Below, piece after piece: positions 32,301 through 35,300 of a stretch of 64,000 bases of DNA; within the stretch, counting starts at the first letter, position 1, and every line of letters begins with the position of its first letter. The stretch lies in NCBI RefSeq assembly GCF_053078305.1, contig NZ_CP166879.1; one strand, given 5' to 3'. The position numbers were made by a program.

Positions 32301-35300
32301 TTACTGCGGTCAAACGGTGGAAACCGCGCCGAGTAAGGAGTTGGTGACGATGCCACATCACCCTTATACCCAGGCGCTGATCCGCGCGATACCAGACTTC
32401 GGCAGCGCGATGCCGCATAAAAGTCGCCTCAATACGCTGCCCGGCGCTATCCCACTGCTGGAACAGTTACCGATTGGTTGTCGTCTGGGGCCGCGTTGCC
32501 CGTACGCACAACGAGAATGCATTGTGACGCCACGTTTGACGGGGGCGAAAAATCATCTCTATGCCTGTCATTTCCCGCTGAACATGGAGAAAGAGTGAGA
32601 TGATCGAAACGCTGCTTGAAGTGCGTAATTTAAGTAAAACGTTCCGCTACCGGACCGGTTGGTTTCGTCGCCAGACCGTAGAAGCGGTAAAACCCTTGAG
32701 CTTTACGTTACGTGAAGGCCAGACACTGGCGATTATTGGCGAGAATGGTTCGGGTAAATCCACGCTGGCAAAAATGCTGGCGGGAATGATAGAACCTACC
32801 AGCGGCGAGTTATTGATTGACGATCATCCACTGCATTTTGGCGATTATTCCTTCCGCAGTCAGCGTATTCGCATGATTTTTCAGGATCCTTCGACCTCGT
32901 TGAATCCCCGTCAACGTATCTCGCAAATTCTGGATTTTCCACTGCGCCTGAACACCAACCTGGAACCGGAACAGCGTCGCAAACAGATTATTGAAACGAT
33001 GCGTATGGTTGGGCTGCTACCGGACCACGTCAGTTACTATCCGCATATGTTGGCCCCCGGGCAAAAACAGCGTCTGGGTCTGGCGCGCGCGCTGATATTG
33101 CGCCCAAAAGTCATTATTGCCGATGAAGCCCTCGCTTCACTGGATATGTCGATGCGTTCGCAGTTGATTAATCTGATGCTGGAATTACAGGAAAAACAGG
33201 GCATTTCGTATATTTATGTTACCCAGCATATCGGAATGATGAAGCACATTAGCGACCAGGTGCTGGTGATGCATCAGGGCGAGGTTGTCGAGCGAGGCAG
33301 CACCGCGGATGTGCTGGCATCGCCGCTGCATGAACTCACCAAACGGCTGATTGCCGGTCATTTTGGCGAGGCATTGACAGCGGATGCGTGGCGTAAGGAC
33401 CGTTAGTGTTCTGCACCTCATCCTGACAGGGGCCCCCCCTCAGGATGAGGTATTCATTACTTTTGATTGTCGATTCTGGTGAGAGCAACCAGGAATGCCA
33501 GTGTATAACACACCGTAATTGCCAGACTCATTTTTAACAGTGTTTCTCCGCCAAATCCCGACAATGGCGCGGCTATACCGCCGAAGACAAACATGCTCAT
33601 CCCCATCAACGCAGACGCCGTTCCAGATTCCTGCGTCCCTACTGCACTCATAGCCTCTGCCCCGCCAACAGTGCCGATGCCGCTACAAAATGCAATAGTG
33701 AAAAATAATGCCACCAGTGCCGGAATGGGCAATTGTGTCCATGCGCATAAGACCGTGAGCAATGCACACAAAATTGCCGCTATCAGGCCACCTCGCAACA
33801 ATGTCATCGCATTAATCCGTCGCGCCAGACGCGAAAAGATCCATGAAGCAATGATAAGTCCGATGCCGTTAAGGCCAAACACCAGGCTAAATTGCATTGG
33901 ACTAAAGCCAAATTCCTTCTGCAACACGAACGACGAAGAGCCGATATACGCAAACAAGCCTGCCAGCATAAAACTTTGAATCAGGCAAAAGCGCATAAAA
34001 CGGCGGTTCTGCACCACGCTTCGTCCGGTTAATAGCAATGATGAGCCCCTTTTATTTTCTGGCAAGGTCTCATTAATAAATAACACGCAGCCCAGCAACA
34101 ATACGGCGCTAATTTCAGCCATTACCCAGAATAAAGTGCGCCAGTCAAAAGTGCTAACAATGTACCCGCCCAGCACTGGCGACAACACCGGTGCCAGGCC
34201 ATTCACCGTCATTAACAGCGCAAAAAACTGGGTCAACGTTACTCCCTGATATTTGTCACGAGCAATAGAACGAGAGAGCACCGAACCACCCGCCCCCGCG
34301 ATCCCTTGAATAAAACGCCAGACCACCAGCCAGTAAATATTGTTCGTTGTCGCGCACAAAATGGAAGAAACAATAAACAATAGCAACGACAAGATTAACG
34401 GACGTTTACGCCCTATTTTGTCGCTCAGAGGGCCAAATAACAGTTGTCCGACGCCAAGACCGATCAGTGATGCAGTCAGCGTTAATTGCGTTATGGTCGT
34501 GGTTGCCGCCAGTTGCTCAGACATCTCCGGCAAAGCCGGCAAATAAAGATCGGTACACATCGGGCCGATACCGGCTAAAAGACCAAGAATCAATGCCCAT
34601 GAAAGAGAGACTCTAGCCATATTATTCCTTACTTGAGTGATGACATGCCGCCGCCCAGCGACTGCCAGAGCGTGATTCGGTTTGTAAAATCAGTCAGTTG
34701 CAGTGCCAGCAGCTCCTGCTGTGCGCTCCACAAGCTGCGCTGCGCCGTCAACACGGTCAGGTAATCACCAACACCCGTCTGATAGCGACGCAAGCCAACA
34801 TCGACCGTTTGTTGCTCAGCTTTAACATACTGGCGCTGTGCATCCAGTTGCTCTTCAAGCGTGGTCCGCCGCGCCAGTGCGTTAGCGACATCTTTAAATG
34901 CGCTCTGAACGGTTTTTTCATAGGTGGCAATGAGTCCACGCTTTTGTGCTTCTGCGTAACGAAGCTGCGCCAGATTACTTCCGCCAGTGAACAGCGGTAA
35001 TGTGACCGATGGCGTAAATGACCAGATCTGCATTCCGTGGCTGAACAACGACGACAATGCGTCACTGCCAACACCAGCGCTGGCAGTCAGCGAAATCGTC
35101 GGGAAAAAGTTAGCCCGCGCCGCGCCAATATCGGCATTGGCGCTCTTCAAATTATGTTCCGCTTCCTGGATATCCGGGCGACGCAGCAGAACGTCAGATG
35201 ACACTCCCGCAGGAACCAGACTTATCATCTGTTCCGGCAGGCTTTCCAGTGTTCCCGGTAGCAAATTTTCCTCAAGCGTTGTACCTGCCAGTAAAGTTCA

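Follow-up and report, generated by a model that had tools for sequence, protein, structure and literature searches.

The 64,000-nucleotide (nt) stretch of contig NZ_CP166879.1 (NCBI RefSeq assembly GCF_053078305.1) analysed here, referred to below as the window, carries a block of five genes that is very probably the Escherichia coli accessory operon eefRABCD, an operon repressed by EefR and, in this strain, partly decayed to the point at which no pump of the resistance-nodulation-division (RND) type can form. An earlier note on this DNA had drawn attention to the end of the block, where the gene for an exporter of the major facilitator superfamily (MFS) follows that for an outer-membrane factor (OMF). 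The observation is correct and is already known: published work covers eefRABCD as a whole, including the repressor and operator, the transcription of the genes as a single unit and the phenotype of the MFS gene. In the account given below, gene anatomy, locus identity, lesions and operator were determined here, and co-transcription, repression and weak multidrug export are taken from work on published orthologues.

Gene calls, made from a listing of open reading frames (ORFs) together with NCBIfam and Pfam profile searches, place every gene of the block on the minus strand, in the order TetR-family repressor, periplasmic adaptor, RND permease, OMF and MFS exporter, between sapF (32600..33406) and fabI (41428..42216), both of which lie on the plus strand. 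The first gene, eefR (40384..40950; coordinates from the annotated locus L001), is intact and encodes a TetR-family repressor of 188 amino acids (aa) matched by Pfam TetR_N; it is followed by an equally intact eefA (39114..40235), whose product, a periplasmic adaptor of 373 aa, yields a match to NCBIfam TIGR01730 as well as MexA/AcrA-like matches. The RND permease gene, eefB (36007..39114), is a pseudogene split into ORFs 38887..39114 and 36007..38838, and eefC (34629..36003), for an OMF of the NodT type, is likewise a pseudogene, split into ORFs 35272..36003 and 34629..35264. The last gene, eefD (33457..34620), is intact and, by its profile matches, encodes a 387-aa MFS exporter of the DHA1 (Bcr/CflA) type. 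Genes eefA and eefB overlap by 1 nt, and the spacers measure 3 nt between eefB and eefC, 8 nt between eefC and eefD, and 148 nt between eefR and eefA. RefSeq annotation of the collinear loci L001-L003 agrees, with these five genes likewise flanked by sapF and fabI.

The block is matched to the published operon through its position, its gene content, its operator sequence, and its identity of 98-99.9% to E. coli genomes at large. By megablast, the 8-kb block is present whole and in one piece in 2037 of 5426 complete E. coli genomes (~38%), including O157:H7 and PCN033, at identities of 98.0-99.9%; the remaining genomes match its sapF end only, and a shorter eefB query also matches E. coli LF82. 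The earlier note had described two unrelated exporters under one TetR-controlled transcript as an uncommon arrangement, a view that does not survive the finding of a named operon at this frequency or the precedent of mdtABCD (PMC4462101). A search with the MFS product recovers a cluster of 2610 sequences at 98% identity, and the near relatives of this product, at 91-95% identity, are named E. coli and E. albertii proteins.

The first mention of eefRABCD dates from work on E. coli SMS-3-5 (Fricke et al., 2008). A subsequent survey of more than 19,000 assemblies, in which eefRABCD is defined by this site and gene set, found the operon always between fabI and sapF; phylogroups B2, D, E, F, and G have it, phylogroups A, B1, and C lack it, and E. 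coli eef loci are reported to share >97% nucleotide identity (Pugh et al., 2026, PMC12817139). The window shares with the E. coli eefRABCD operons of SMS-3-5, ATCC 25922, and ATCC 35218 the site, the five genes, their order and orientation, and the EefR operator; it differs from an intact operon in carrying a nonsense codon in eefB (L76*) and a frameshift in eefC.

Lesions in eefB and eefC

The lesions were found by aligning the window with the intact locus of E. coli PS10-3 and with the O157:H7 and strain S6 loci, and then translating the genes. In eefB, codon 76 is changed from TTA to TGA, placing a stop at 38889..38887 (plus-strand base 38888 is C here and A elsewhere), and a further substitution, P224S, is found at 38445. 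In eefC, one extra A (plus strand) near 35293 alters the frame at codon 237 and leads to a stop at codon 244. With EefB stopped at codon 76 and EefC out of frame from codon 237, no RND pump can form, and the block, in which eefB and eefC fail to give full-length products, is a decayed allele rather than a functional copy. Within eefABCD just three changes are specific to the window; the EefR, EefA, and EefD proteins are the same as those of PS10-3, and the eefD DNA is identical too. The earlier note, in naming the MFS gene as the sole transporter of the block to have stayed intact, is therefore right; the eefA and eefR genes are intact as well. However, as eefD is identical to the copy of an intact strain, there has been no time for decay, and its intactness says little about selection.

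The eefB nonsense allele was found in 0 of the 2038 complete E. coli genomes holding that segment, and the eefC frameshift allele in 0 of 2043. The lesions are nevertheless not artefacts of one record, since exactly this 243-aa truncation of EefC is among the products called from 23 public contigs. The closest record, L010 (a Logan assembly of SRR30292771), is 99.97% identical over 6.7 kb and differs from the window only at 38888 and 38445; because it shares the eefC frameshift without the eefB changes, the frameshift came first and is common to a lineage, and L76* and P224S were acquired later. A search with the 75-aa EefB fragment was set aside as evidence, most of its matches being cut by contig ends and hence uninformative. 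In one noisy assembly (L011), a stop is found at the same eefB codon, with eefB called in five pieces and eefC intact.

Decay appears to be confined to the operon. Judged by length, the ORFs with counterparts in the PS10-3 gene list look complete, and neither insertion sequence (IS) elements nor repeats of at least 100 nt were found in the window, findings that indicate local decay and not a generally eroding genome and that rule out the IS-disrupted form described in Shigella dysenteriae (Pugh et al., 2026). As a separate observation, the eef block (33300-41300) is 99.9% identical to PS10-3, and positions 1-24000 of the window are at most 98.1% identical to any of the 5426 complete E. coli genomes, a contrast that reflects either mosaic ancestry or a poorly represented source lineage.

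Broken copies of the operon are found elsewhere. Firstly, eefB of O157:H7 carries a frameshift, annotated in FRIK2455, in which a run of five C residues has become six (C5 to C6, plus strand; near 5878 of locus L002, equivalent to window position 36176), so that O157:H7 is probably without functional EefB. This allele is exact in 301 of the 2043 eef-positive complete E. coli genomes, and all six exact matches among the matches listed (6/6) are O157:H7 strains or cattle isolates. Secondly, strain 21310 (L019) carries an independent 2-nt TA duplication, annotated by RefSeq, that shifts the frame of eefC ~25 nt before its stop. Additionally, eefB of locus L021 (4506-7614) is called as two pieces of 748 and 273 aa, owing to a further independent disruption or to a fault in the assembly. 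In each examined copy with an eefB or eefC lesion, eefD is annotated or called intact, FRIK2455 with its frameshifted eefB included.

Taken together, the sequences of the window, O157:H7, 21310, and L021, and the disrupted S. dysenteriae form, point to recurrent loss of the RND part of the operon. Such recurrence sits uneasily with the strong selection that has been deduced from nucleotide identity; the word 'frameshift' is absent from the main text of the survey by Pugh et al. (2026). It is unlikely, in our estimation, that selection keeps EefD and EefR of this regulon rather than the RND pump, a reading suggested by the independent hits in eefB or eefC beside an intact eefD and by the eefR-eefD pair of Kluyvera behind its shared promoter and operator. 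Were this the case, the window would stand midway in a convergent reduction of the five-gene operon to a TetR-MFS pair, and the published proposal that high nucleotide conservation of eefABC signifies an important function would need to be qualified.

For annotation, the block is best labelled eefR, eefA, eefB (pseudogene), eefC (pseudogene), and eefD, and the strain should not be counted as having a seventh functional RND pump. More broadly, screens based upon presence and absence or upon percent identity score frameshifted copies as conserved, the O157:H7 eefB allele (301/2043) being an example, and counting the pseudogenes of eefB and eefC could alter the picture of a pump strongly selected in pathogenic lineages.

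The eefC-eefD junction and transcription of the operon

The junction between eefC and eefD (34618..34631, minus strand) consists of the eefC stop codon TAA (34631..34629), the 8-nt spacer GGAATAAT (34628..34621), and the eefD start codon ATG (34620..34618), and reads, from 5' to 3' on the minus strand, TCA CTC AAG TAA GGAATAAT ATG GCT AGA. The Shine-Dalgarno sequence of eefD, UAAGGA (34631..34626), overlaps the eefC stop codon, agrees in six bases with the consensus UAAGGAGGU, and is separated by 5 bases from the ATG, so that ribosomes can load on eefD independently of eefC translation. The coordinates thus agree exactly with the earlier claim of an MFS start 8 nt past the OMF stop with a Shine-Dalgarno sequence of its own. 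A 71-nt segment containing the junction is exact in 1281 of the 2043 eef-positive complete E. coli genomes, the other copies differing at 1-3 positions or by one small indel, and the stop-spacer-start is identical in all six further copies inspected (five E. coli genomes and one public read-set assembly). Judged from these sequence comparisons, chance does not account for the arrangement. In the predicted RNA fold UAAGGA is unpaired, and the stability of the fold does not exceed that of shuffled sequence (z = 0.55). Simple motif scans of the coding strand found no sigma-70-like or terminator-like site at the junction, and no Rfam model matched within the eef block; with the fold no better than shuffled and no match in the block, the idea that the junction holds a terminator or a regulatory RNA structure was rejected.

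The further claim of the earlier note, that the MFS gene is co-transcribed with the RND genes under TetR control, is borne out by experiments on the orthologous E. coli operon, performed in derivatives of ATCC 35218 (Shen et al., 2025, PMC12482432). In that work, reverse transcription PCR (RT-PCR) on cDNA amplified all eefRABCD junctions, including eefC-eefD, demonstrating one transcript; the RT-PCR across the OMF/MFS junction that the earlier note had proposed is, for the orthologues, already in the literature. Deletion of eefR raised eefD mRNA 27-fold, in step with eefB and eefC. Purified EefR was found to bind TGAGAACGATCATTCTCA 5' of eefR in electrophoretic mobility shift assays (EMSA), single-base changes abolished binding, and a genome scan revealed no other EefR palindrome upstream of any gene (Shen et al., 2025).

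The window contains an exact match to this published operator, TGAGAACGATCATTCTCA, at 40976..40993 (minus-strand reading). The palindrome sits immediately downstream of the TATAAT box of a promoter-like site 5' of eefR, TTTCCA-16 nt-TATAAT (41003..41030, minus strand), which, with 10 of 12 matches, is the best in the region. The layout of CGTATAAT, a short spacer, and the operator is retained in Kluyvera, Klebsiella, Raoultella, and locus L021, and hence in every case compared, even in those Klebsiella and Raoultella without the repressor gene.

These data bear directly upon the suggestion that eefD has an additional promoter inside the 3' part of eefC, the tight spacing then reflecting gene packing and not obligatory coupling. 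Some encouragement for this idea comes from other organisms, in which eefD-type genes are found directly after eefR (Kluyvera) or alone beside a Tn3-family transposase, and in which the eefC-eefD spacer of Klebsiella and Raoultella extends to 45-48 nt and contains a GC-rich hairpin, with UAAGGA and its 5-nt distance to the ATG kept. Yet the coding strand of eefC yielded no sigma-70-like site, which led to rejection of an internal eefD promoter as a candidate, and the published results argue in the same direction: eefD mRNA rises in parallel with that of eefB and eefC when eefR is removed, the EefR palindrome upstream of eefR has no counterpart upstream of another gene, and RT-PCR spans the eefC-eefD junction (Shen et al., 2025). 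A promoter of its own for eefD is accordingly considered improbable, and transcription from the eefR promoter remains the preferred reading.

Several RNA hairpins are predicted along the transcript. A terminator-like hairpin, GGGGGATATTAATCCCCC followed by TTATTTCATT (40346..40363, minus strand), lies 20 nt past the eefR stop and could attenuate read-through into eefABCD; read-through from eefR to eefA has been seen by RT-PCR (Shen et al., 2025). Further downstream, the leader of eefA contains the hairpin TCCTCATTAATTTTAATGAGGA (40262..40283, minus strand), 27-48 nt upstream of the eefA ATG, the stem of which is kept through compensatory changes in four lineages, namely the window, L021, Klebsiella, and Raoultella. 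Some of its pairs are U-G and thus valid on the sense strand only. This hairpin could be a leader RNA element, and may relate to the reported requirement of plasmid-borne eefAB, eefABC, and eefABCD for sequence upstream of eefA in order to work (Shen et al., 2025).

A candidate second EefR operator at 40250..40267, 15 nt 5' of the eefA ATG, was rejected as a working operator. It has one mismatch to TGAGAA-N6-TTCTCA, for which 0.09 matches are expected per window, but of its two halves L021 retains TTCTCA alone and Klebsiella retains none. Moreover, a 148-bp fragment downstream of eefR, employed as the non-specific competitor in EMSA, did not compete (Shen et al., 2025), and this fragment is probably the same as the 148-nt eefR-eefA spacer seen here. 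At the other end of the operon, a long GC-rich hairpin lies between the convergent stops of eefD and sapF (33416..33450) and is likely to mark the 3' end of the eef operon. Its inner stem-loop (33438..33450) is a plus-strand terminator-like match, and its loop displays a polymorphism (indel) in the length of a G run at 33430-33432 among strains.

EefD and a working model of its function

Profile searches substantiate the Bcr/CflA-like assignment made in the earlier note. EefD scores 277.6 bits against TIGR00710, the NCBIfam model of the Bcr/CflA subfamily (cut-off 200.9; residues 7-378), and matches Pfam MFS_1 over the whole model (positions 3-347 of 347), its closest solved relatives being EmrD (2gfp, E = 2.7e-27, residues 10-360) and MdfA. 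Likeness to the Bcr/CflA, EmrD, and MdfA transporters (DHA1, TCDB 2.A.1.2) therefore consists in passing the subfamily model, in an alignment with EmrD over 350 residues, and in the presence of motif A (GPLSDKIGRK, residues 63-72); a motif C-like stretch, GLAPVLSPVLGG, was read by eye at residues 141-152. EefD falls below the NCBIfam equivalog cut-offs for Bcr, EmrD, MdtL, MdfA, and TcaB, and as the best of these matches, TcaB, remains under its cut-off (314.5 bits versus 475), no specific function was assigned. Published analyses describe EefD as 30% identical to E. coli Bcr (Shen et al., 2025) and model its substrate cavity as a different one (Pugh et al., 2026).

Heterologous expression with profiling of minimal inhibitory concentrations (MICs), the other experiment proposed in the earlier note, has also been reported, with a positive result in one study and a negative one in another. 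Carried on pBR322 in DH5alpha delta-acrB, eefD raised MICs 4-fold for sanguinarine, chloramphenicol, tetracycline, erythromycin, and clindamycin, and eefABC raised MICs 8- to 32-fold, with eefAB about equal to eefABC (Shen et al., 2025). In the second study, MIC effects of eefD and eefABC were limited to ethidium and rhodamine (Pugh et al., 2026).

In the working model, EefR bound to the palindrome that directly follows the -10 box would keep the operon nearly silent, and loss of EefR would derepress all five genes on one transcript running through eefD, upon which ribosomes would load independently by way of its own Shine-Dalgarno sequence. EefD would be a 12-helix MFS protein of the drug:H+ antiporter type that moves substrates from the cytoplasm to the periplasm, and EefAB, together with EefC or TolC, would constitute a tripartite RND pump expelling substrates across the outer membrane. 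The two may cooperate in two steps, as in the general two-step model of efflux, EefD delivering substrates to the periplasm and the RND pump taking them up from there. In this strain, only the repressor, an orphan adaptor, and EefD are still coding.

Several points weigh against the identification of the block as an EefR-controlled export operon and against the model built upon it. The link to the published operons of ATCC 25922, ATCC 35218, and SMS-3-5 is drawn from site, gene content, operator, and identity to E. coli genomes in general. With regard to transcription, the terminator-like hairpin past eefR means that read-through into eefA-D may be partial, and eefD lies ~6.4 kb from the only demonstrated promoter, behind two translation-terminating lesions. 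With regard to activity, eefD added to eefABC gave no further MIC gain and no synergy (Shen et al., 2025), deleting or expressing eefD gave no MIC change for 19 agents (Pugh et al., 2026), and the two studies consequently disagree on drug export by EefD.

The results on activity lend themselves to another interpretation, namely that EefD is not primarily a drug pump and, like MdtD/IceT, exports an endogenous or host-derived compound, drug phenotypes being effects of overexpression. The absence of an MIC change in the 19-agent panel favours this interpretation, as do the size of the gains reported by Shen et al. (2025), just 2- to 4-fold and obtained with a multicopy plasmid in a delta-acrB host, and the match to the TcaB equivalog, which falls under its cut-off. 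MdtD itself is unneeded for drug resistance and has been reassigned to iron-citrate export (PMC4462101). Deletion of eefD nevertheless slowed ethidium efflux even with AcrB present (Pugh et al., 2026), the closest characterised relatives of EefD (Bcr, EmrD, and MdfA) are all multidrug:H+ antiporters, and a natural substrate has never been proposed. A primary role outside drug export is thus a serious possibility, although the balance is tilted somewhat toward EefD as a drug exporter.

The points on transcription raise the question of whether eefD is expressed at all. Because eefD lies behind a nonsense codon and a frameshift, with long untranslated stretches, Rho-dependent polarity is possible, and in this strain eefD may be expressed from the distant eefR promoter at a lower level or not at all. 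GC skew of the plus strand is -0.05 to -0.14 over eefB and eefC, such that the mRNA strand is G-rich and not C-rich, a composition that argues weakly against strong polarity. At its extreme, this line of thought holds that the whole operon is functionally dead here, the lesions uncoupling translation, transcripts ending before eefD, and the lesions being too recent for eefD itself to have decayed. Identity of the eefD DNA to that of PS10-3 and the presence of just three window-specific changes in eefABCD, which allow almost no time for decay, are in keeping with this proposal, and no promoter-like site was found on the coding strand from 34621 to 38977. The occurrence of the eefC frameshift on 23 public contigs and the absence of the eefB nonsense codon from L010 likewise fit step-wise loss. 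However, with its own Shine-Dalgarno sequence, eefD is translatable on any read-through transcript, the G-rich mRNA strand of eefB and eefC would be unfavourable to strong Rho loading, and eefD is annotated as intact in O157:H7 FRIK2455, in which eefB is frameshifted (an allele of 301 complete genomes). Complete functional death of the operon is therefore regarded as rather doubtful, and a partly decayed operon with EefD still coding is the reading carried forward.

Relatives of the operon and other features of the window

Outside Escherichia, genes homologous to the adaptor (membrane fusion protein, MFP), RND, and OMF genes are found as eefABC in Klebsiella aerogenes and K. pneumoniae and as eefABCD in Klebsiella and Raoultella, where an eefD homologue at 67-68% protein identity follows them; DNA identity is ~72.5%. 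In Klebsiella quasipneumoniae and Raoultella terrigena, eefABCD occurs without an eefR gene. The Klebsiella/Raoultella site also differs from that of E. coli, adjoining two genes with SIS-domain and phosphotransferase system (PTS) EIIB/EIIC products. In these two species (loci L006, 2137-2154, and L008, 2133-2150), the exact EefR operator and the eefR promoter lie ~200 nt upstream of eefA, with eefR gone, and this promoter relic is followed by a strong terminator-like hairpin, AGGAACA...TGTTCCT, with a T run.

Other lineages hold different subsets of the genes. In Kluyvera (L004, 7251-9164), only eefR and eefD are present, without RND genes and with the same promoter and operator; the Kluyvera EefR shares 66% identity with the E. 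coli protein, and the site of this gene pair is the site of Klebsiella eefABCD. Locus L021 carries eefRABCD at another chromosomal site, with an EefD 81% identical to that of the window and an eefC-eefD gap of 18 nt, and some Enterobacter species carry eefRABC without eefD (Pugh et al., 2026). Two contigs labelled E. coli, L022 (3314-4528) and L023 (2895-4109), contain a lone EefD homologue of 404 aa (76% identical) that adjoins a Tn3-family transposase, suggesting a mobilised copy.

Among other export systems, the closest parallel in architecture is mdtABCD-baeSR of E. coli, in which an MFS gene, mdtD/iceT, is the last transporter gene and is co-transcribed with RND genes, its product being dispensable for the drug phenotype (PMC4462101). 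The two systems differ in control and composition: mdtABCD is governed by the BaeSR two-component system, has no OMF gene, and uses TolC, whereas eef has a TetR protein and an OMF gene. An MdtD model does not occur among the 25 best NCBIfam matches of EefD, which are of the Bcr/CflA type. MdtD is an MFS protein of a different type from EefD. On this comparison, the eef operon does not belong to the mdtABCD type, and the likeness is an analogy of architecture only.

A second parallel is offered by MexAB-OprM and MexCD-OprJ of Pseudomonas aeruginosa: EefA scores best against the MexA model, and the eef operon, like these operons, encodes its own NodT-type OMF. Neither mex operon is known to include an MFS gene, and the repressor genes of both are arranged differently from that of eef. 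EefABC has been reported to be closer to MexAB-OprM and MexCD-OprJ than to any E. coli paralogue (Pugh et al., 2026).

Finally, at some distance from the eef block, the window contains an Rfam match to the enterobacterial small RNA STnc180 (196.6 bits; 56764-56966, minus strand), located in the gap between the large ORFs 53959..56634 and 57636..58610, which by their lengths correspond to acnA and cysB.

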